Shown here one piece after another: positions 1 through 12,641 of a stretch of DNA of 20,000 nt. The stretch's first letter is position 1. The number at the start of each line of letters is the position of its first letter. The stretch is taken from the IMG/VR virus record IMGVR_UViG_3300027782_000076; one strand, 5' to 3'. The notes below the pieces were generated by a model that made no database searches, was not told the origin of the DNA, and saw nothing but the letters and a program-made list of their open reading frames with translations. A program made the position numbers and the translations under genes. This DNA comes from an uncultured virus (IMG/VR IMGVR_UViG_3300027782_000076) (taxonomy: Duplodnaviria > Heunggongvirae > Uroviricota > Caudoviricetes > Crassvirales).

Positions 1-356
1 GCCGTCGAGCGCTGAATCGTTTTGTTTACGTCCATCGACGTTAATTTCCCAATTGGAATTGCATTGTTACGAAAGTCCATCACGGGCAGGTAGTCAATAT
101 GCTCGATGTCGTTCACGACGATACCAACCTTAACGTAGGCGGTAGTTCCGTCGGTGAAATAATTTAAGCCCGTGTGGTCGTGCTCGTAAATTTTACGCTG
201 AGCGTTTGGATAGTGGGTCTTTAATAAAGACCAAGCGTTTGCCCAAGACAAGTAGTCAAGGTTTCCCTTGCGCTCAATCTTGTCCTTGATGCTGATTGCT
301 GATAATGTTTTGAATACCTCGTTGGTACTCGAAACTGCTGTTGTGTTTGTCGCCAT
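1..356 (-). CDS. sak: Sak/Rad52-like single-strand annealing protein (DUF1071 / Sak3-like), 3' end off-window
   Basis: Not in the ORF track because there is no stop in the window. Manual translation from ATG at 356: MATNTTAVSSTNEVFKTLSAISIKDKIERKGNLDYLSWANAWSLLKTHYPNA...YLPVMDFRNNAI...DVNKTIQRSTA. The YLSWA.AW, LPVMD.RN and N.TIQR motifs are typical of DUF1071. Confidence 0.85.
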   Translation of the reverse strand, partial: MATNTTAVSSTNEVFKTLSAISIKDKIERKGNLDYLSWANAWSLLKTHYPNAQRKIYEHDHTGLNYFTDGTTAYVKVGIVVNDIEHIDYLPVMDFRNNAIPIGKLTSMDVNKTIQRST

Positions 357-367
357 TTTGTTTTGGA

Positions 368-670
368 TTAAATTGTGATTGAATTTTGAATGTTTTTTAC
401 TAATTTTTTGTAGTCGGCGTCTTGTTTCATCTTGTTTTCAAATGAAGATACGCCCCTATAGATTGTTGACCAACTTGTCTTGTAGCCATTCTCCTTCATA
501 TAGGTATTAATTGTTGCTAAGGGCATCGGTCTTACTGAACATAGATAGTACAATAAGTGCCTTGCGTCTACATACTCCTGAACCTTTGATTTTTTAAATA
601 GGTGCTTTCTCTCTATACGAAATGTCTGAACTACCTTCTCCACACACTCATTAAATATATCTTTTTTCAT
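368..670 (-). CDS. Stand-alone DnaA C-terminal (domain IV)-like HTH DNA-binding protein
   Basis: 100 aa. The pattern KSK.QEYVDARHLLYYLC...PLATI...STIYRGV resembles Bac_DnaA_C (SR..iv.aRq.amYl...sl..Ig...HtTv.ha). Confidence 0.65.
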   Translation of the reverse strand: MKKDIFNECVEKVVQTFRIERKHLFKKSKVQEYVDARHLLYYLCSVRPMPLATINTYMKENGYKTSWSTIYRGVSSFENKMKQDADYKKLVKNIQNSITI

Positions 671-697
671 TGTATTGTAATTAAATTTGATTGTTCA

Positions 698-729
698 CAA
701 ATATACACATTGTGCATTGATTATGCAAT
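698..729 (-). promoter_or_regulatory. Bacteroidota sigma70-type promoter
   Basis: Minus strand ATTG-N20-TATATTTG against the consensus TTTG-N19-21-TAnnTTTG, upstream of the 670 start. Confidence 0.65.
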
Positions 730-1100
730 TATTTGGAAATAAACTTCCTTGCGACTCTGTCCCACAACTCCTCCTCTACCAATTCGAGCGACTTATCTTT
801 GATGATGCTATTCATCTCGTCCGATTGTTCTGCGTCGTTAATCTCGAGCAGGAAATCTCCCGTGATTAAGATTTGGATGTAGAAACCGCCAACGTACCTT
901 ACCACGTCCCTGCAATCGGGTCTGAGCCTTGCGCTTGGGTTGTAGTGTACAAACAACTCTCTCGGTGTTATTCTGCCCGTGTTAATAAACAAATCAAAGC
1001 TCATCTCTCCGTCTTGCATCTTCTGCAGGGTTTGGATGTACAATTTATCGGGCTTGTCCTTTAGTTTTTCCTTCAGGATTTCTTCTGCTACTATGGTCAT
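729..1100 (-). CDS. Hypothetical phage protein
   Basis: 123-aa ORF, ATG start, co-oriented in a densely packed minus-strand operon. Confidence 0.75.
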   Translation of the reverse strand: MTIVAEEILKEKLKDKPDKLYIQTLQKMQDGEMSFDLFINTGRITPRELFVHYNPSARLRPDCRDVVRYVGGFYIQILITGDFLLEINDAEQSDEMNSIIKDKSLELVEEELWDRVARKFISK

Positions 1101-1131
1101 CTTATTTTTACTAAATTGTTAAACAATATTT

Positions 1132-1530
1132 TTATGCGTAAACTACTTCGCCCAATGCAATGTATTGGAATATAACGTCCGAACTTGTGGCGTCTCCGTG
1201 TTCGTTTATTTCGTTTAGGATAGCCCAACTATTATCGTCGGTAGCACACTTTTGCAGTCTTTCACTCATCGTAGTCATACTGATTGTTCCAACTGCGTCC
1301 TCGTCCTCCTCCTCTTCGATGTCGTGTATCTCTACGTCAATGTTGTGGTCGTACACTGCTGAGAATAGAGCCTGACTAAATGGTATACTCCTATCAGGCA
1401 CAACTTCTCTGACTTTCTTAACGGCTTTACCTCCGATAAGATACCAATAATTACTCCCGCCCTCTAATGCGGTTACAAAGATGTCTTCCAAGACTTCTCT
1501 TGTCAATTCAATGTTAATAGATACTTTCAT
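1132..1530 (-). CDS. Conserved hypothetical acidic phage protein (ALEGGSNYW ... DA..sD.ifQ...GEvvY type)
   Basis: 132 aa, A-rich leader, overlaps the upstream stop (ATGA). Confidence 0.8.
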   Translation of the reverse strand: MKVSINIELTREVLEDIFVTALEGGSNYWYLIGGKAVKKVREVVPDRSIPFSQALFSAVYDHNIDVEIHDIEEEEDEDAVGTISMTTMSERLQKCATDDNSWAILNEINEHGDATSSDVIFQYIALGEVVYA

Positions 1531-1715
1531 ATTTGGTTTATTATAAATTTAACTTTTGATTTTGTGTTTGGGTTTAACTCTAATTGCCCTATCGAACACC
1601 ACCCATTTGCCCATTCGAAATTGTTTTCTCCTATCCAAGTTATCTTGCGGAGAACTTTGCCGTGTTCGTTTTGTAAATAAAACAAATCACCTTTGTAAAT
1701 TCCTTTCGTCTTCAT
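1527..1715 (-). CDS. Hypothetical phage protein
   Basis: 62 aa, translationally coupled to both neighbours. Confidence 0.7.
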   Translation of the reverse strand: MKTKGIYKGDLFYLQNEHGKVLRKITWIGENNFEWANGWCSIGQLELNPNTKSKVKFIINQI

Positions 1716-1716
1716 T

Positions 1717-1920
1717 TTATTTTATAGTTAAATGACCTACTTCTATTCCGATGTCTTCTCCGTTTTCCAACGCTTGATTTATTTCAAAAAAGTCTTCGAC
1801 TAAACTTTCGCTATCGTCATCGTGTAAAACATATAATGAAAATAGTCCGCTTTGATAAACTTCTTTGGCTATGTCAGTTACTAAGAACCACACAAAGCCT
1901 TGTACAACTTTTGCTCTCAT
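1717..1920 (-). CDS. Hypothetical phage protein
   Basis: 67 aa, tight packing. Confidence 0.75.
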   Translation of the reverse strand: MRAKVVQGFVWFLVTDIAKEVYQSGLFSLYVLHDDDSESLVEDFFEINQALENGEDIGIEVGHLTIK

Positions 1921-1923
1921 AAT

Positions 1924-2250
1924 TTAGTTTGTTATTGTTTTAGTTATTAAACTCTCGATAATTTCAAACTTCCCGTCCTGAAAGTAAATATCAACGGGAA
2001 AGTCAATGTCAGGTAAGCACAATGTCTGCTCACCGAATAGGTTCATATTCACTGCCCCAAAATCCTCGATAAAGTAATCCTCGATTTCGCTCCAATGGAT
2101 GAGCAACTCGATGTCCACCTCGTTAATTTTTATCTCCACCGAATATATCAATGCAGACTTGTTGTTGACCTCGAACACTTCGAGGTCGATTGTTGGGAAC
2201 TTGTTCTCTTGTACCCAAGAACTCAGCTCCGATAATTTAAATTTTTTCAT
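1924..2250 (-). CDS. Hypothetical acidic phage protein (start revised to 2250)
   Basis: The ATG at 2250 follows the A-rich leader TTAAAAACCAAAACAAACAAACAA. The ORF-track start at 2286 lies inside the hammerhead. Confidence 0.75.
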   Translation of the reverse strand: MKKFKLSELSSWVQENKFPTIDLEVFEVNNKSALIYSVEIKINEVDIELLIHWSEIEDYFIEDFGAVNMNLFGEQTLCLPDIDFPVDIYFQDGKFEIIESLITKTITN

Positions 2251-2275
2251 TTGTTTGTTTGTTTTGGTTTTTAAA

Positions 2276-2329
2276 TCCCGTTTCATCCTTTTGGAATCAT
2301 CAGTCGAGACAACTCATCTCGATACGGGA
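2276..2329 (-). ncRNA. Type III hammerhead ribozyme (HHR-1)
   Basis: Minus strand: UCCCGUA^ UCGAGA-ugaguug-UCUCGA CUGAUGA uUCC-aaaa-GGAu GAA ACGGGA. Complete core, 6-bp stem I, 6-bp stem III, GUA triplet. Predicted cut between 2323 and 2322. Confidence 0.88.
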
Positions 2330-2358
2330 GAGTGTCCTTAAAGACACTCCCGTTTTTT
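2324..2358. terminator. GC-rich hairpin; followed by T6 on the + strand (terminator-like against antisense transcription); overlaps HHR-1 stem III
   Basis: ACGGGAG-AGTGTC-cttaaa-GACACT-CCCGT-TTTTT. Confidence 0.45.
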
Positions 2359-2460
2359 ATGGTCTAAACCTGACGACTTCGGTCTCGGTGAACCAACTAC
2401 AAAAACCCCCGTAATAATAGTGTGCGAACCCCATCGAACCTCAGTCGTTATAATAAAGCA

Positions 2461-2491
2461 CTAAGATAGCATATACATTGCACATATCAAA
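2461..2491 (-). promoter_or_regulatory. Bacteroidota sigma70-type promoter
   Basis: Minus strand TTTG-N19-TATCTTAG (one mismatch to TAnnTTTG). Confidence 0.6.
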
Positions 2492-2497
2492 ATTAAA

Positions 2498-2698
2498 TTA
2501 ATCTTTGTAGCTTGGCTTGATAGCAAAGCACTCAATCATCTCGTCGTGATAGGCGTCAATATTATTGACCTTAGTGAACTCGTTCGCTTGTTGTTTGGTC
2601 TCAAACTCAGCCACCAATCTTTCACTCTTGCACCTATATATTTTGGCGTAATTCGTCGGTACTTCGACCACGCTCCACACAATTTTCTTATTCATCAC
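2498..2698 (-). CDS. Hypothetical phage protein
   Basis: 66 aa, in operon. Confidence 0.7.
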   Translation of the reverse strand: MMNKKIVWSVVEVPTNYAKIYRCKSERLVAEFETKQQANEFTKVNNIDAYHDEMIECFAIKPSYKD

Positions 2699-2891
2699 AG
2701 GCCTCCTTTACTATTTCAAATACTCTGACGCCGTTAACTTCCCTGAACTCAATCGGGTACAACTTGATTAACATTTCTAATTTGTCCTTGAAGAATCCTC
2801 GTCTGCTCTTAGGCAGATAAATCAATCTGTCAATCACCTCTTGCGTCAACTCCCTGCGCTCTTGGTACACATCTACTTTTTGCTCTTGCAT
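2688..2891 (-). CDS. Hypothetical phage protein
   Basis: 67 aa, in operon. Confidence 0.7.
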   Translation of the reverse strand: MQEQKVDVYQERRELTQEVIDRLIYLPKSRRGFFKDKLEMLIKLYPIEFREVNGVRVFEIVKEACDE

Positions 2892-2895
2892 AACT

Positions 2896-3045
2896 TTAGT
2901 TTTTAAGTTTAATTTTAATCATATCCAAAATAAAATTGTCAATGTTCTGCTGTCCCCAACTGCGGGCACCCTCGAACGAATCAAAGTCCTTACGTGCTAC
3001 CTTGTAGGCGTTGTCTTTGTTTAGGTATTCAATGTAAATCTCCAT
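2896..3045 (-). CDS. Small hypothetical phage protein (49 aa, below ORF-track cutoff)
   Basis: MEIYIEYLNKDNAYKVARKDFDSFEGARSWGQQNIDNFILDMIKIKLKN*; exactly fills the gap between its neighbours. Confidence 0.7.
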   Translation of the reverse strand: MEIYIEYLNKDNAYKVARKDFDSFEGARSWGQQNIDNFILDMIKIKLKN

Positions 3046-3046
3046 C

Positions 3047-3235
3047 TTACTTGTTGTTTAGGGTTTCGTCTAATCTATTACACCCGTACGCAACTGCGCC
3101 TAAGGATAAAAACATTGTACACATTAGCACCACCCATTCGAACGGGTTTAAGCTATCTAAAATACTCATCAGGTAGACTATCAGACCTGAATAAGCTAAG
3201 CCTCCTAAGGCTAATAAAATTATTGTTTTTTTCAT
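3047..3235 (-). CDS. Small membrane protein with two predicted TM segments
   Basis: Hydrophobic stretches IILLALGGLAYSGLIVYLMSIL and WVVLMCTMFLSLGAVAYGC. Confidence 0.7.
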   Translation of the reverse strand: MKKTIILLALGGLAYSGLIVYLMSILDSLNPFEWVVLMCTMFLSLGAVAYGCNRLDETLNNK

Positions 3236-3236
3236 C

Positions 3237-3533
3237 TTACTTTCTTTCTAATTGATAAAGTTTTGTCTCAAATTCTTTGGTCATTTCCTCAACGTCGTAA
3301 ACCTTTTCGTTGTCGTCGTCCTCGTAATAATAAATGGGGACACTTATGCTATCGTCCGACGTTTCGTAGCTATCGAATTGATACTTATCGGTGTTAATCA
3401 TATCGCAGTTTATAGACGATATAAACCACATTACCGACCACACCATTCCATTGTCTTCCGCCCATTGTAGGCGCTCTTCCTTTGTTTGCTCGACCATATC
3501 GAATGGCGATGCAAAGATTCTTGTTTCTTTCAT
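3237..3533 (-). CDS. Hypothetical acidic phage protein
   Basis: 98 aa, leader TTAAACCAAACAAAAA-ATG. Confidence 0.75.
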   Translation of the reverse strand: MKETRIFASPFDMVEQTKEERLQWAEDNGMVWSVMWFISSINCDMINTDKYQFDSYETSDDSISVPIYYYEDDDNEKVYDVEEMTKEFETKLYQLERK

Positions 3534-3566
3534 TTTTTGTTTGGTTTAATTAAGCACTATTGCTTG

Positions 3567-3610
3567 GGCTATGCAAGGGACTCGAACCCTTGTTTATACC
3601 ATACATAGCC
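3567..3610 (-). ncRNA. tRNA-like element: acceptor stem plus T-arm, no anticodon arm
   Basis: Minus strand: GGCUAUG-uauGGuauaaa-CAAGGG-UUCGAGU-CCCUUG-CAUAGCC. Perfect 7-bp and 6-bp stems, a canonical TPsiC-type loop, and GG in the linker. Confidence 0.65.
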
Positions 3611-3617
3611 AATCTAA

Positions 3618-3857
3618 TCAATCGTAGTCGGGGAAAAAATCTTCCCAACCATCTGCAATTCCGTTTGTGTTCATTCTGCGCATTGGCTCCTGTCTCTGCT
3701 CCTCCTGTTCGCCTTGCACATCGATAAAATAAATCGTGTCAGGAAATAAATCCTTTAAACTATCCATCTCGATTACCGCCTCGTCGTACGATAAATCACT
3801 TGCCTCGATTTGTGGGTACCCGTCCTCGTCCACGCCACATACTCTGAACTTGTCCAT
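3618..3857 (-). CDS. Hypothetical acidic phage protein (start revised to ATG 3857)
   Basis: MDKFRVCGVDEDGYPQ...; starts 5 nt after the stop of the 3863-4027 ORF. Confidence 0.7.
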   Translation of the reverse strand: MDKFRVCGVDEDGYPQIEASDLSYDEAVIEMDSLKDLFPDTIYFIDVQGEQEEQRQEPMRRMNTNGIADGWEDFFPDYD

Positions 3858-3862
3858 ATCCG

Positions 3863-4027
3863 TTAGTATTTGTCCGTTAAACACTCTCTACGCTCCACCT
3901 TAGACCCGTCAATCGTTAGCGCCATCTTAACTGCGTCGGAACACTTTTTGAACGTGTACATCTGCACAAACTTTCCTAAGCATAGGCAGTCCACTGCCCA
4001 CAACTTAGCCATCTTTAATTTTCTCAT
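3863..4027 (-). CDS. Small hypothetical phage protein (54 aa, below cutoff)
   Basis: MRKLKMAKLWAVDCLCLGKFVQMYTFKKCSDAVKMALTIDGSKVERRECLTDKY*; fills the gap and has an A-rich leader. Confidence 0.6.
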   Translation of the reverse strand: MRKLKMAKLWAVDCLCLGKFVQMYTFKKCSDAVKMALTIDGSKVERRECLTDKY

Positions 4028-4031
4028 TTTT

Positions 4032-4517
4032 TTAGTTTAATTTAATTTTTTCCTCTAATAATATATCTAAGACTTCCAACTCGGACTCGTATTCCACGTC
4101 TCTCCACGAATAGACGTCGGTCTCCTTGTCGTAGTCTTTTATCCAATAGATGTCGGTCTCCTTGTCGTGGTCGATTCTATCAAAGTCCTCACCCTCTAAG
4201 TTCACTACGGACATACCGCCAACGTCACCGATAACGCAACCAAATATTTTACCATCGGTCTCAACGTAGTCGTAGCGATAGTCTAACCCGAATTTTAATG
4301 CAAGTTGGTCGACCTGATAAATATCAGGAGTACCCTCAGTAATGAAATCGACAACACCATCTTCAATAGTCAAATCAAAGCAATACTTTTCTTGTTTGCC
4401 GTCCATCAAATAAATACTATCGTATCTATTTTTGGTCGTTCGAGATTTAATAAATTCTAAGCATTCTGCGACTCTATCTCCTTGAAATAAAATCGTATTG
4501 TAGCAATTGTTCGCCAT
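4032..4517 (-). CDS. YubB/DUF1281-like (ferredoxin-like fold) phage protein
   Basis: N-terminus MANNCYNTILFQG resembles M(A/P)NWC.N...f.G; the later F.T..tP and y.Y.E.....fG pattern also fits. Confidence 0.5.
   Translation of the reverse strand: MANNCYNTILFQGDRVAECLEFIKSRTTKNRYDSIYLMDGKQEKYCFDLTIEDGVVDFITEGTPDIYQVDQLALKFGLDYRYDYVETDGKIFGCVIGDVGGMSVVNLEGEDFDRIDHDKETDIYWIKDYDKETDVYSWRDVEYESELEVLDILLEEKIKLN
4109..4172. repeat. In-frame tandem duplication with 36-nt period
   Basis: AATAGAcGTCGGTCTCCTTGTCGTaGTC (4109-4136) versus AATAGAtGTCGGTCTCCTTGTCGTgGTC (4145-4172); encodes DHDKETDIY / DYDKETDVY. Confidence 0.85.
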
Positions 4518-4523
4518 TTTTTT

Positions 4524-5141
4524 TTAATTATTTAAGTGGTTATTATTAATCAGGTAAAAATTATCGGTCACCTCTTGGTTATCCGTGTCAAACTCCTCGA
4601 TAAGCAAGTCGTAGTTTAACTTATGGGTGTTGCAAAACTTTAAGTAGTTTTTCAACCCTTGCACGTCGTCCAATTCAAAATGCTTATCAGGCAGAATGTT
4701 ACTTGGTCTCTTAGGGTCGTCGCACCTTATCAGGTAGTACATCTCGTATTGATTGCCGTAGTCGTTTATCCACTCGGTAAGCAATTCCCTTGTAACGTAA
4801 CAGGCATCGGGCGTACCATCGAACAATCTTAGCTTGCCGTTCGAATCGTGAGCCATACGCCCTTCCTGCCTCTTATGCAAAATCATTTCGTCTAATACGC
4901 TTTGTAGCTCGTGCTTAGATACCTTAGTTGGCTCGGGGGTATCAATTAGATACGCCCAAGATAACCACACGCTAAGACCATCGTTGTGGTCTCTTCTCGC
5001 AATGTACTTCGCATCGTCTTCCGACTCAGCCTGTACAATACATTTAACCTTCATTAACTCAGGCTCAGCCTTGTCAATGTCTCTCGATGGGTTAACCACT
5101 AACTGCATCGAAACTTCGTACTCTTTTAATTTCTTGTCCAT
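4524..5141 (-). CDS. Hypothetical phage protein
   Basis: 205 aa, A-rich leader. Confidence 0.8.
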   Translation of the reverse strand: MDKKLKEYEVSMQLVVNPSRDIDKAEPELMKVKCIVQAESEDDAKYIARRDHNDGLSVWLSWAYLIDTPEPTKVSKHELQSVLDEMILHKRQEGRMAHDSNGKLRLFDGTPDACYVTRELLTEWINDYGNQYEMYYLIRCDDPKRPSNILPDKHFELDDVQGLKNYLKFCNTHKLNYDLLIEEFDTDNQEVTDNFYLINNNHLNN

Positions 5142-5154
5142 TTTTTTGGTCTCC

Positions 5155-5463
5155 TTATTTTTGATTTAATTTAATTTTTGTCCATAGAATTTCACAACCG
5201 CAACAATTATACACCTCGATTCCGATGTACCCGTCTTTCTCTTTGTATTTAAAGTAATCTCGGCTACGACCTACGCAGTAAACACCTTTGTGACCTATTG
5301 CGTCAGCCTTGTCAATTTGTATCATCTCGGTATCTTGGAAATACTCGATGCCGTCAAACATTCCATTGAACCTTGACTTTGTTTCGACGAATAATTCGTC
5401 TGCATTTTTAATGAACGACTTTAGCGTCGCCATCGTGATTTTTTTGTTTTTTAAATTTTCCAT
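5155..5463 (-). CDS. Conserved hypothetical phage protein (ITmATlKSFIk ... VG.SRDyF ... GIEVyNcCG)
   Basis: 102 aa, starts 22 nt downstream of HHR-2. Confidence 0.8.
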   Translation of the reverse strand: MENLKNKKITMATLKSFIKNADELFVETKSRFNGMFDGIEYFQDTEMIQIDKADAIGHKGVYCVGRSRDYFKYKEKDGYIGIEVYNCCGCEILWTKIKLNQK

Positions 5464-5485
5464 TTTTTTATGGGTTTAAGGGGTT

Positions 5486-5538
5486 TGCCGTTTCGTCCTT
5501 TTGGACTCATCAGGTGGGACACTCATCCCACGACGTCA
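5486..5538 (-). ncRNA. Type III hammerhead ribozyme (HHR-2)
   Basis: Minus strand: UGaCGUC^ GUGGGA-ugagug-UCCCAC CUGAUGA GUCC-aaaa-GGAC GAA ACGgCA. Canonical core, G10.1-C11.1 pair, GUC triplet. Predicted cut between 5532 and 5531. Confidence 0.92.
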
Positions 5539-5559
5539 GGAGCGCCTGAGCGCCCCTGA
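5536..5559 (-). other. GC-rich 10-bp hairpin directly 5' of HHR-2
   Basis: Minus strand UCAGGGGCGC-ucag-GCGCUCCUGA with no U-tract; begins 5 nt after the stop of the 5565-5969 gene. Confidence 0.7.
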
Positions 5560-5564
5560 TTTGA

Positions 5565-5969
5565 TTACTCTATCGGGTGAACTTTAATATCATTCTCAAC
5601 CAATTGCTGAAACCAATTTTTCAACTCTAAATCAGCGACGTATATCCACGTCGACACCTCACGGGATAGGGCGTTGGTGCTACGCGCCCTGACGTTGCCC
5701 TTGCGATTCAATGTTACTTCGTAATTACCGATTATTACTTTAAGTTTCTCTTGCTGATGTTTGTTAGCGTGGTTCGGATTGTTAAAGTAAAGTAAATGGT
5801 ATTTGTACTCCTCAATTTGGTATTGATAGGTATATAAATTCTCACCTACTTCGGCAAAGTTTTCTAAGAAATTTGCGTTCAATAATTTTTGCAAATCTTT
5901 AACCTTGTACTCCAAATATTTAATTTGGTTTGTTACTTCTGATGCGATGTCGTTGATGTCTCTTCTCAT
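5565..5969 (-). CDS. Hypothetical phage protein with N-terminal coiled coil
   Basis: 134 aa, leader TTAAACCAAAAAAAAA-ATG. Confidence 0.75.
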   Translation of the reverse strand: MRRDINDIASEVTNQIKYLEYKVKDLQKLLNANFLENFAEVGENLYTYQYQIEEYKYHLLYFNNPNHANKHQQEKLKVIIGNYEVTLNRKGNVRARSTNALSREVSTWIYVADLELKNWFQQLVENDIKVHPIE

Positions 5970-6013
5970 TTTTTTTTGGTTTAAATTGTTTCTGATTAAA
6001 TTGATTAAATTGA

Positions 6014-6295
6014 TTATAATTCCTTAACTAAATACTTGTCGTACAACTCTTCCTTGTTCGGTTGTCCTGATACCCAATTGATGTACAGGTAAGGGTCGAC
6101 GCCATTGCTTAGGATGTGCTTAGCCGTTAGGATTTTGATGTCCTTAAAGTCGTAATCCATATCCTCGATATCGTACTTCGAGTAGTACAAAATATCTTCC
6201 TTGTCCGTTCCCTTGTAGTCCCATCCATTTACGATGATGAACGTGCCTTTAAGCACTGCAAAGTGCGTGTACTTTTTTGTTGCTTTGTGTTTCAT
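6014..6295 (-). CDS. Hypothetical phage protein, first gene of the leftward operon
   Basis: 93 aa, directly downstream of the promoter candidate at 6334-6364. Confidence 0.8.
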   Translation of the reverse strand: MKHKATKKYTHFAVLKGTFIIVNGWDYKGTDKEDILYYSKYDIEDMDYDFKDIKILTAKHILSNGVDPYLYINWVSGQPNKEELYDKYLVKEL

Positions 6296-6333
6296 TTTTA
6301 TAGGGGTTTAACAATGCTACCTGCATTGGATGT

Positions 6334-8731: not shown

Positions 8732-10348
8732 ATGCAAACAGAAAATTTAGGGTACTCCCCGAAGAACTTACAGTTCGACGAGCAGGGTAGGGAAAAATTA
8801 GCTAATGGTGTTAAGCTGATGGCGAAGGCTGTCAAGAGCACATTAGGTCCAAGTGGAAACACGGTGCTAATTGAATCACCAAATCACACACACGGTATTA
8901 CGGTAACAAAGGACGGGGTAACAGTAGCAAAGTCTATTGACCTGTTAGACCCTGTAGAAAACCTTGCGGTTAAGATTATGAAGGAGGCGGCAGACAGAAC
9001 TGCTACGAGTGCCGGTGACGGTACGACCACTGCAATTGTGCTAACCGAGGCTTTAGTAATAAATGGTCTTAACTTAATTAACGAGGGTTACAACAGAACA
9101 GAAGTATTAAGAGCGTTATCGGACATAACCACTAAGGTGGTGGACAAGTTGGTTAAAAAAAGTAAGAAGGTAAGTAACGCAATGTTGTCCGATGTGGCAA
9201 CTATATCAGCAAACAACGACAAGGAGATAGGTAAGATTATCTCTGAGGTATATAAAGAGGTTGGTAAGAACGGTATCGTGACCGTCGAGAGGTCGCAGAC
9301 TGCGGACACCTATGCTGAAACCACTAAGGGATTAAAGATTGAGAGAGGTTACTCGTCTCAGCTGTTTATCAATAACCAAAAGAAGGACGAGTGTATATTT
9401 GAGGACGTGATGGTAATGGTAGCAGATGTGGACATTAGTAACATCTTGCAGATTGAGAACGTATTAAAACCAATTATATCTGAGGGTAAAAAATTACTAA
9501 TCATTGCACCGTGCTCTACCAATGTGGTTAACACTATTGCCGCTAACGTAATGAAGAACAACTTAAAGATATGCACAATTCAACCACCGAACTTTGGGTA
9601 CAAGCAACACGAGCTGATGCAAGATATTGCTATTAGCGTCGGAGCCACGTACTTCAGCGAGAAAACCGGAGATGATTTGTCTCATATCAGTTACGCTGAT
9701 TTAGGTCACGCAAGTAGAGTAATTGTTGGTAGAGACAGCACGGTACTTGTTAAGTCAACTGCAAAGGCGGACGAAACATTAATTGCTGAGCGCGTTGCAC
9801 AGCTGTGGGATGCTTACGCAATGGCAAAGAGAAAGACGGACAAGGACTTTATCTTAGAGAGAATCGCATCACTCACGGGTGGTGTTGGTGTAATCTACGT
9901 CGGTGGTAACACTGACTTGGAGCAGAAGGAATTATTCGATAGAGTAGACGACGCGGTATGCGCGGTACGTTCAGCCTTGGAGGAGGGAATATTGTCGGGA
10001 GCGGGTAAGGCATTGTACGAGATTAACTGCTCAGAGTTTTTAACAGAAGATGCATCTGACGAATATAAGATTGCGAGTTTAATTATTCAACTTGCAATTG
10101 AGTCACCACTAAAACAAATATTAACTAATGCAGGATTAAGTTCTGAAGATATTTATAGCGGTGAGAAAAAAGAAGGTTGGGGCTATAACCTGAAAGATGG
10201 TAAGATGGGAGATTTAATTTCGATGGGTGTTATTGACCCATTAAAGGTAACGAGAAGCGCACTACAGAATGCAGTCTCAGTTGCAATAACTATACTAAGT
10301 ACGAATGCTATCATTACGATGTCAAGGACGTATGAAGCAGGTTCTTAA
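8732..10348 (+). CDS. groEL: Phage-encoded chaperonin GroEL (Cpn60)
   Basis: 538 aa. AVKSTLGPSG, VTKDGVTVAK, AGDGTTTA, VATISAN, ERIASLTGGV, RVDDA...AL.EEG, GVIDPLKVTRSALQNAVS. Confidence 0.97.
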   Translation: MQTENLGYSPKNLQFDEQGREKLANGVKLMAKAVKSTLGPSGNTVLIESPNHTHGITVTKDGVTVAKSIDLLDPVENLAVKIMKEAADRTATSAGDGTTTAIVLTEALVINGLNLINEGYNRTEVLRALSDITTKVVDKLVKKSKKVSNAMLSDVATISANNDKEIGKIISEVYKEVGKNGIVTVERSQTADTYAETTKGLKIERGYSSQLFINNQKKDECIFEDVMVMVADVDISNILQIENVLKPIISEGKKLLIIAPCSTNVVNTIAANVMKNNLKICTIQPPNFGYKQHELMQDIAISVGATYFSEKTGDDLSHISYADLGHASRVIVGRDSTVLVKSTAKADETLIAERVAQLWDAYAMAKRKTDKDFILERIASLTGGVGVIYVGGNTDLEQKELFDRVDDAVCAVRSALEEGILSGAGKALYEINCSEFLTEDASDEYKIASLIIQLAIESPLKQILTNAGLSSEDIYSGEKKEGWGYNLKDGKMGDLISMGVIDPLKVTRSALQNAVSVAITILSTNAIITMSRTYEAGS

Positions 10349-12049: not shown

Positions 12050-12387
12050 TGGGTACCAACAAACCTGAATATATGCATTCGTGGAGGGAGAGGAATAGGA
12101 ATAAGGTTGTTGGTTATGAAAGGAAGCGCTATGAAAAGAGGAAGTATAGCAAGTATGGTATAACAAAAGAAATACTTAACCAAATATTACTCGAACAGAA
12201 TAACAAGTGTTATATTTGCAGCACTGAATTTACAGAGTCGGTTAAGTTAAACATAGACCACTGCCACACAACAATGAAAGTTAGAGGACTACTCTGCATT
12301 AATTGTAATTTAGGGGTTGGTCACTTTAAAGATAACATTGAACTGTTACAAAGCGCAATAGAATATATAATCAAATCAAAATTATGA
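12049..12387 (+). CDS. Endonuclease VII-family (His-Me finger) nuclease
   Basis: KYGIT...QNNKCYIC...NIDHCHTTMKVRGLLCINCNLGVGHFKDN..LLQSAIEY. Confidence 0.9.
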   Translation: MGTNKPEYMHSWRERNRNKVVGYERKRYEKRKYSKYGITKEILNQILLEQNNKCYICSTEFTESVKLNIDHCHTTMKVRGLLCINCNLGVGHFKDNIELLQSAIEYIIKSKL

Positions 12388-12641
12388 AAGCAATCGGCAA
12401 GAATATCATCATTACAATCGTAGACGAAGAGGTTACTACCTCGTCAGGGATATTATTATCAGGCGAAGACGCCAATCAACTAAGATATAAAAGAGGAATT
12501 GTTAAGGCTGCGGGTACAGACGTATCAGCAATTGCAGAAGGCGACGAAATTTACTATGACAAAGGTCACGGTTACACGATGGTGATACACAATGAGCAGT
12601 ATAGCATCATCCAAGAGCGTGACGTTGTCGTAGTATTATAA
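12384..12641 (+). CDS. groES: Phage-encoded co-chaperonin GroES (Cpn10)
   Basis: 85 aa. Mobile loop EVTTSSGILL, G.VKAAG, EGDEIYY, IIQERDVVVVL. Confidence 0.88.
   Translation: MKAIGKNIIITIVDEEVTTSSGILLSGEDANQLRYKRGIVKAAGTDVSAIAEGDEIYYDKGHGYTMVIHNEQYSIIQERDVVVVL

Follow-up and report, generated by a model that had tools for sequence, protein, structure and literature searches.

Multiple hammerhead ribozymes have been described in prophages, in which they flank genes and were suggested to divide long phage transcripts into mRNAs the length of a gene or an operon (Perreault et al. 2011, PMC3088659). The same report describes the in vitro cleavage, by hammerheads, of native polycistronic constructs of about 2 kb (PMC3088659). 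Two later reviews note that hammerheads flank small non-conserved open reading frames (ORFs) in a role left open (2017, PMC6155905) and treat their participation in polycistronic processing as an open question as well (2019, PMC6765202). Here, we analyze a 20,000-nt stretch of DNA from an uncultured virus of the Crassvirales (IMG/VR record IMGVR_UViG_3300027782_000076; the whole stretch is hereafter called the window), in which an operon of small minus-strand genes carries two type III hammerheads, at 5485-5539 and 2275-2330, and a tRNA-like minihelix in a third intergenic gap, at 3568-3609. As in the clusters of Perreault et al., several hammerheads of one strand are lodged between small non-conserved phage genes, and the locus adds no new kind of element but belongs to a described class of phage ribozymes. 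Its interest lies in a fixed package that can be quantified, namely a hairpin that would seal the 3′ end left by cleavage, a ribozyme and a short leader, which is kept while the surrounding genes are replaced, and in the indication that a tRNA-shaped element can take the position of the ribozyme. An initial annotation of this DNA had presented the role of phage hammerheads as mostly unexplained and had suggested that they cut an early polycistronic mRNA into units; the reviews agree with the former statement, whereas the transcript-processing idea was already in print (PMC3088659).

The best in vivo hint for such a role is provided, by analogy, by the haloviruses HF1 and HF2, in which the hammerhead HHphage is located 13 nt before the start codon of the first gene in an early polycistronic transcript and a 5′ end has been mapped at most 3 nt from the cut site (PMC3088659). 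HHphage differs from the elements studied here in that it belongs to an archaeal virus, is a structurally variant high-salt hammerhead and occurs as a single copy. Among bacteriophages, the core of the 2275-2330 copy is matched at 89.6% by 26 records of Bruynoghevirus, the LUZ24-like Pseudomonas phages, and the hammerhead of a member of this group, PaP3, aligns with that copy; the Bruynoghevirus element has the same stem-loop II with its U-U mismatch, the same type of loop I and a GUA cut. It differs in that only one copy is present, close to the end of the genome, where it follows annotated early promoters and immediately precedes the first gene, and no G+C-rich hairpin of the kind found in the window is evident before it. 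The PaP3 hammerhead is listed among the active ribozymes in the legend of Figure S6 of PMC3088659, in which a primer table labels the element 'potential type3 HH at end of genome'. A literature search directed at hammerheads in LUZ24-like phages found no paper.

Both elements of the window are genuine type III hammerheads on the coding strand of the run of small genes. The Rfam model RF00008 aligns each of them over its full length (model positions 1-54, type III, minus strand), with 42.4 bits and an E-value of 4e-7 for the 5485-5539 copy and 34.2 bits and 9e-5 for the 2275-2330 copy (3.7 kb searched), and at E ≤ 10 no further ribozyme is matched in the 20-kb window. The core, CUGAUGA ... GAAA, is unaltered in both, and the cleavage triplets, GUC and GUA, respectively, obey the NUH rule. 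Cleavage is predicted after GUC and before G, between 5532 and 5531, in the first copy and after GUA and before U, between 2323 and 2322, in the second, which are the sites named in the initial annotation. Three pairs of stem I differ between the two copies, each changed on both sides, as the annotation had also noted. For the predicted upstream cleavage products, folding energies of -19.1 and -16.4 kcal/mol were obtained (z -5.4 and -4.5, respectively), with 3′ tails of 4 and 1 nt, and the ATG lies 26 nt (5485-5539 copy) and 29 nt (2275-2330 copy) behind GAAAC, at the end of an A-rich leader. The succession of G+C-rich hairpin, ribozyme, A-rich leader and ATG that the annotation had described in both gaps is thereby confirmed. 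By analogy with PaP3, which has the same stem-loop II, self-cleavage would leave a 2′,3′-cyclic phosphate and a 5′-OH.

The two modules are built on the same plan and vary in detail. At 5485-5539, the GUC hammerhead adjoins a G+C-rich hairpin of 10 pairs with a UCAG loop (5536-5559; the -19.1 kcal/mol fold is that of the upstream product 5532-5562), which is kept in the nearest related record; stem II of the hammerhead starts with G10.1-C11.1, and the leader (5464-5484) has a UUAAACC heptamer 9 nt before the ATG of a 102-aa ORF (5155-5463). At 2275-2330, the GUA hammerhead follows a hairpin with a GUGUC...GACAC core (2329-2353), seen in a pattern match and in the folds of the whole module and of the product 2323-2362. 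Here, the U10.1-U11.1 mismatch opens stem II, loop I has 7 nt, and the three-way junction is the minimum-energy fold of the module. The outer pairs of the hairpin compete with stem III, and the hairpin re-forms in the cleaved product, with its 1-nt tail. The leader of this copy (2251-2274) precedes the ATG at 2250 of a 108-aa ORF (1924-2250); a program-made ORF list places the start at an ATG within the ribozyme (1924-2286, 120 aa), and the homologue in the nearest relative, which is 108 aa long and 88.9% identical, favors 2250.

To place the two copies in a wider context, a pattern combining their shared core and stem-loop II was run on a collection of viral contigs, in which it found 73 loci; four type I permutations among them were excluded. 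The resulting alignment comprises 61 distinct sequences, of which 57 were picked by the pattern, two are those of the window and two come from the nearest related record, G001. All stem I cells are paired and 6/6 of its pairs are changed on both sides, and in stem III, in which four to five pairs are well kept, 5/7 pairs are changed on both sides. The covariation score is 0.588, as against 0.155 in shuffles (0/500 reach the observed value) and at most 0.104 with slid partners. The intact core and the covarying stems in these 61 sequences show selection on the RNA fold, and the selection on the structure of stem I that the initial annotation had read from two copies is upheld by the larger set. 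Loop I starts with U in 61/61 sequences, and the U-U variant of stem II is present in 29 of them.

Hammerheads were also retrieved independently of this pattern. RF00008 was run on five other records and gave 15 copies among the matches listed. Each record contributes one to four of them, grouped on a single strand within 1.5-6 kb, and one of these records, G003, has at least two further copies beyond the matches listed. In 14 copies from four of these phage records, found independently of loop II, stem II covaries by eye (GUUC/GAAC, GACC/GGUC, UUCG/CGAU, GUCU/AGAC), the loop is A-rich, loop I has a 5′ U and loop II a 3′ A. These loop ends are the ones that would take part in a putative tertiary contact between loops I and II, the type of contact by which hammerheads are active at low Mg2+. 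The window copies belong to a widespread phage subfamily in which stem I has 6 bp, loop I starts with U, the loop on the 4-bp stem II is A-rich and stem III is short. The first pair of stem II tracks the cleaved base in 62 parsed modules: G-C accompanies C17 in 27/31 and U-U accompanies A17 or U17 in 30/31. This association could stem from lineage or from functional coupling, and exceptions occur inside one genome. The four excluded contig loci (L016, L021, L035 and L044) have the same core and stem-loop II as type I ribozymes, with stem III closed and stem I open, so that the same ribozyme body exists in permuted forms.

The layout of the two window modules recurs in other phage contigs, as a search proposed in the initial annotation reveals. 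We scored 63 distinct modules from viral contigs (loci L003-L075), 62 of which could be parsed. An ORF starts 13-45 nt behind GAAAC in 55/63 modules (median 26 nt), versus 572 of 3404 same-strand control positions (17%), and a fold of -12 kcal/mol or below is obtained for the preceding 40 nt in 32/63 modules, versus 3.1% in a set of 1157 controls. A accounts for 49% of leader nucleotides, and a Shine-Dalgarno-like core is present in only 17/56 leaders. In the parsed set, the cut triplets are GUC (28), GUA (26) and GUU (8), and the 3′ tail of the upstream product has a median of 4 unpaired nucleotides (6 or fewer in 54/62). Because of the type III topology, the downstream product begins at the first base of stem I. 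The modeled geometry, with a hairpin near the new 3′ end and the new 5′ end inside stem I, fits the proposed protection of the ends, and the sequence comparisons support the view that the layout of hairpin, ribozyme, leader and ATG is under selection. The proteins encoded behind the modules are diverse: 36 of the 56 distinct ones are singletons, no Pfam family was found among the 44 tested (0/44), and PHROG and Pfam scans assigned no function to the genes in this position.

The hairpin slot is filled in different ways. Many hairpins of the lineage of the window have a GUGUC-loop-GACAC core in common, with outer pairs that differ between copies, and in the relatives such hairpins stand before hammerheads, before the tRNA-like element (G001) and, once, in tandem (G003). 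Other contigs have unrelated G+C-rich hairpins in the same slot. This variety of hairpins and settings leads us to read the hairpin as a structural element rather than a specific binding site. A role of GTGTC...GACAC as a protein operator was considered and set aside, since the bases flanking the core differ between copies and yet pair, as judged by eye, which suggests an RNA hairpin.

The nearest record, G001, shares 22% of sampled words with the window and is syntenic with it in reverse orientation. It retains both hammerheads and the minihelix in place, and the retention of the cores at homologous loci, on which the initial annotation had staked its reading, is thus observed. The region 5440-5560, with its hairpin, ribozyme and leader, is 87% identical between the two, and the genes on either side have no blastn or blastp match in G001. 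Directly behind the leader of its 2275-2330-type hammerhead, G001 has an additional 76-aa ORF. Upstream of the same copy, it encodes a 364-aa ORF (L077 11786-12880), with a gamma-glutamyl cyclotransferase-like (GGACT) domain (PF06094) and a CxxC...CxxC tail, which ends at the hairpin; the window keeps only the last ~100 bases of a gene of this type. This relic of a gene 3′ end, identified by blastn synteny, aligned sequences and ORF comparison with G001, spans 2354-2453 on the minus strand, outside the RNA module, and fills most of the gap upstream of the 2275-2330 copy; about 1 kb of the gene has been lost and the remainder has frame-breaking differences. The persistence of the cassettes where neighboring genes have been exchanged shows selection on the cassette and is also compatible with a recombination junction.

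In the third structured gap, a motif finder identifies a 42-nt minihelix (3568-3609, minus strand) in which an acceptor stem of 7 bp is joined by an 11-nt linker to a T stem of 5 bp, whose loop is UUCGAGU. The tRNA-like element of the initial annotation is hence recovered as an acceptor/T-arm minihelix and not as a full tRNA shape: ARAGORN finds no tRNA in the window, the D and anticodon arms being replaced by the 11-nt linker, and a full tRNA was discarded as a candidate. No Rfam tRNA match is obtained at E ≤ 10, the only hit being an 8-bit match of the T arm to the tmRNA model. The combination typical of RNase P model substrates, in which a 7-bp acceptor stem is stacked on a T stem of 5 bp closed by a 7-nt UUCRANN loop, occurs at one site in the window, and at least one such minihelix is found in 26/300 random sequences of the same composition, so that the site by itself is weak evidence. 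Across the window and four relatives, 85/85 cells are paired, with two compensatory pairs and two more changed via G-U, which lends modest support, from a small sample of sequences, to conservation of the minihelix. A GUGUC hairpin stands directly before it in 4/4 relatives and is missing from the window, and a CCA follows the acceptor stem in the window and in 0/4 relatives. Behind the minihelix, a 5-bp hairpin AAGCA/UGCUU (3552-3565) is paired in 5/5 homologues, with one pair changed from A-U to G-U, and, were the minihelix excised, would come to lie at the start of the RNA downstream. It is followed by an A-rich leader (3534-3551) with UUAAACC 9 nt before the ATG of a 98-aa ORF (3237-3533).

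Transfer RNA-like 't-elements' serve as processing signals in plant mitochondrial mRNAs. RNase P is also described as cleaving non-tRNA substrates, including phage M3 RNA, the precursor of P1/P7 C4 RNA and operon mRNAs (PMC11143913). The minihelix resembles these substrates in being a tRNA-like fold within a longer transcript, the stack of acceptor and T arm being the part that is recognized, and differs from them in being a 42-nt element between phage protein genes at which cleavage is surmised. The minihelix probably fills the ribozyme slot through host enzymes, with RNase P acting on its 5′ side and a 3′ tRNA nuclease behind it.

Based on the above data, we propose that the ribozyme cassettes cut a polycistronic transcript and so make its cistrons independent in stability and translation, a reading that we consider rather probable. 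Each cassette would be read in the order upstream stop codon, stable hairpin, ribozyme, A-rich leader of ~20-30 nt and ATG. In a long minus-strand transcript, the ribozymes would cut after GUC or GUA during synthesis. The upstream RNA would then end a few nucleotides behind the hairpin with a 2′,3′-cyclic phosphate, and the downstream RNA would start with a 5′-OH nucleotide paired in stem I, followed by an unstructured leader. Through the structured ends that such a cut would give to neighboring cistrons, the stability and translation of each are proposed to become independent of its neighbors. A 5′-OH protects RNA against RNase E-type decay. The sites of RNase III in the early mRNA of phage T7 likewise split a polycistronic early phage transcript into hairpin-ended units; they differ in relying on a host protein and a long double-stranded stem and in producing 5′-phosphate/3′-OH ends, and they have no sequence or structural relation to the cassettes. 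RiboJ offers another parallel, in which a hammerhead between upstream sequence and gene leader removes the upstream context and the 5′-OH RNA starts with the folded ribozyme; it differs in being engineered from a plant satellite RNA ribozyme, with a hairpin added downstream, and is no natural phage element. Synthetic ribozyme insulators such as RiboJ are treated in PMC6206723.

Several observations weigh against transcript cutting as the function of the cassettes. Among the 63 modules, 8 have no nearby ORF start and 31 have no hairpin of -12 kcal/mol. The GUGUC hairpin stands alone before a leader and ATG twice in G001 and once in G003, so that hairpin and ribozyme can act separately. The 57 reference sequences were selected by their fixed stem-loop II and provide no independent evidence on that part of the fold. 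The minimum-energy fold predicted for the 5485-5539 copy contains stems I and II and lacks the weak stem III, and in the model of the 2275-2330 module the competition between the outer hairpin pairs and stem III could slow cleavage. A search among sequence runs gave DNA metagenomes from freshwater and a single RNA run, matching 5% of words, as contigs. The fate of the 5′-OH product is also equivocal: in the case of the glmS ribozyme, a 5′-OH marks the RNA for RNase J1 in some bacteria, and whether this end stabilizes or destabilizes is set by the RNases of the host. Lastly, the test with the Rfam type III model suggested in the initial annotation has a mixed outcome, in that both matches are full length and yet neither reaches the gathering cut-off of 48.5 bits, which none of the 15 listed copies in the five other records passes either (0/15). 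Consequently, a default Rfam search reports nothing at this locus, and the subfamily, with all 17 scored copies missed, goes unreported by routine annotation. This cut-off is a curation threshold and no structural feature; the copies were found in E-value mode.

The low scores could be taken to mean that the elements are decayed copies that have lost cleavage, and the U-U mismatch of the 2275-2330 copy and the weak stem III of the 5485-5539 copy might suggest the same. We regard this as very improbable, since no core position is altered and both copies are conserved with their flanks in G001; moreover, the U-U pair, found in 29/61 members, is reported as a tolerated variant, weak stems III are described as frequent, and a phage example is listed as active (PMC3088659). 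Improbable too, if to a lesser degree, is the idea that the hairpins stop or pause transcription, perhaps on the opposite strand as well, and that the ribozyme trims the read-through. On the plus strand, a T run follows the 2330-2349 hairpin, which is scored as terminator-like, GUGUC hairpins occur without ribozymes, and a tandem pair of them marks the apparent end of a gene block in G003. On the coding strand, by contrast, there is no T run behind either hairpin and neither is called terminator-like, so that an intrinsic terminator in this orientation was rejected; terminator-like sites in the window number 6 versus 5.6 expected, and same-strand genes resume directly behind each module. The plus-strand 2330-2349 hairpin might act as a stop for antisense transcription as well.

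The competition between hairpin and stem III invites a different interpretation, in which the cassette is a conditional switch: folding kinetics, Mg2+, temperature or a bound factor would tune cutting and thereby set the ratio of downstream to upstream expression. The UCCC stretch of the 2275-2330 module is used both by the outer pairs of the hairpin and by stem III, the hairpin extends after product release, stem III of the 5485-5539 copy is weak, and slower phage variants have been suggested as possibly regulated (PMC3088659). We nonetheless find a switch unlikely, as hairpin and stem III do not overlap in every module and in some only abut, as seen by eye, the 2275-2330 module is already predicted to adopt the active three-way junction at minimum energy, and no ligand-binding or sensor domain is present. 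A little less likely still is that the cassette is kept mainly as a recombination linker or semi-selfish module at gene borders, with any benefit to expression being secondary. This would account for the 87% island at 5440-5560 between non-homologous genes, for the extra 76-aa ORF exactly behind a leader in G001 and for the diverse orphan genes behind modules, and it agrees with the occurrence of the 2275-2330 stem I sequence in unrelated contigs and with a core 89.6% identical to that of Pseudomonas phages. A linker, however, could do without a catalytic core, which is intact in 61 sequences with covarying stems, and mosaic breaks of phage genomes occur at gene borders anyway.

Transcript cutting by the cassettes could also be one instance of a wider arrangement, which we put forward tentatively: an interchangeable punctuation slot at the gene borders of this phage group, in which a stable hairpin, with a fixed GUGUC...GACAC core in this lineage, is followed by a hammerhead, a minihelix or nothing and then by the standard leader of the lineage, the cassettes serving in addition as portable junctions for orphan genes. 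If this were true, protein-free cutters and cutters that depend on host enzymes would have been swapped at the same position, in a phage counterpart of mitochondrial tRNA punctuation. The literature searched, which does not extend to the alignment dataset of PMC3088659, contains no description of the hairpin-ribozyme-leader package or of a minihelix in the same slot, which is not proof of absence.

The idea that the cassettes punctuate a transcript is testable, and the candidate cultured phages are Bruynoghevirus on Pseudomonas and Cellulophaga phage phi18:3. In Bruynoghevirus (phiIBB-PAA2, L076 1091-1140; PaP3, L082 1-90), stem III touches or overlaps the ATG of the first gene, and AAGGA in the 3′ strand of stem II lies ~7 nt before this ATG, so that the ribozyme fold may hide a ribosome-binding site. 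Phage phi18:3, a cultured phage of Bacteroidota, has an unannotated type I hammerhead between gp050 and gp049 (L087 395-450), with a CUGAAGA core, a closed stem III and a GUC triplet; it lies between small hypothetical genes and is followed by an A-rich leader. Neither the Bruynoghevirus nor the phi18:3 ribozymes, which were identified by eye, are reported by RF00008 at E ≤ 0.01.

The window derives from a freshwater metagenome. Its operon with the RNA elements (1-6295, minus strand) is composed of ~20 small ORFs in the ORF list, the last of which is Sak-like and clipped at the window edge. PHROG matches were obtained for 2 of the 19 minus-strand ORFs scanned, the Sak-like annealing protein (3-356) and phrog_2355 (1132-1530), and Pfam gave no family for the seven operon proteins tested (0/7). 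The gene content suggests that the operon is early, as the initial annotation had called it. Other products of the 20-kb window include endonuclease VII, a large tail-related protein and, encoded by the phage on the plus strand, homologues of GroEL (538 aa, 8732-10348) and GroES (12384-12641). The phage collection has its closest GroEL (63.6%) in a spring-derived record of an uncultured Caudoviricetes, and among cultured phages the closest is that of Flavobacterium phages (37%).

Signals for transcription and translation were also sought in this sequence. A promoter scan of the window stays at chance level (26 sites versus 22.1 expected), and the terminator-like sites mentioned above are likewise at chance level; these counts are therefore uninformative on transcription units. 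Unlike the three structured gaps, the remaining gaps of the operon show no more folding than shuffled sequences (z +0.7 to +1.0). In G001, a motif script detects an 84-nt tRNA-shaped sequence with a long variable region (L077 2202-2285, minus strand), inside a segment that is absent from the window and lies between two window-matching stretches. Finally, the heptamer UUAAACC is found on the minus strand at 3543-3549, 5473-5479, 5978-5984 and 6305-6311, 8-9 nt 5′ of four operon start codons, whether a ribozyme is present or not. It occupies the position of a ribosome-binding element and yet is not Shine-Dalgarno-like; across the whole window, 9 heptamers are found versus 5.8 expected.

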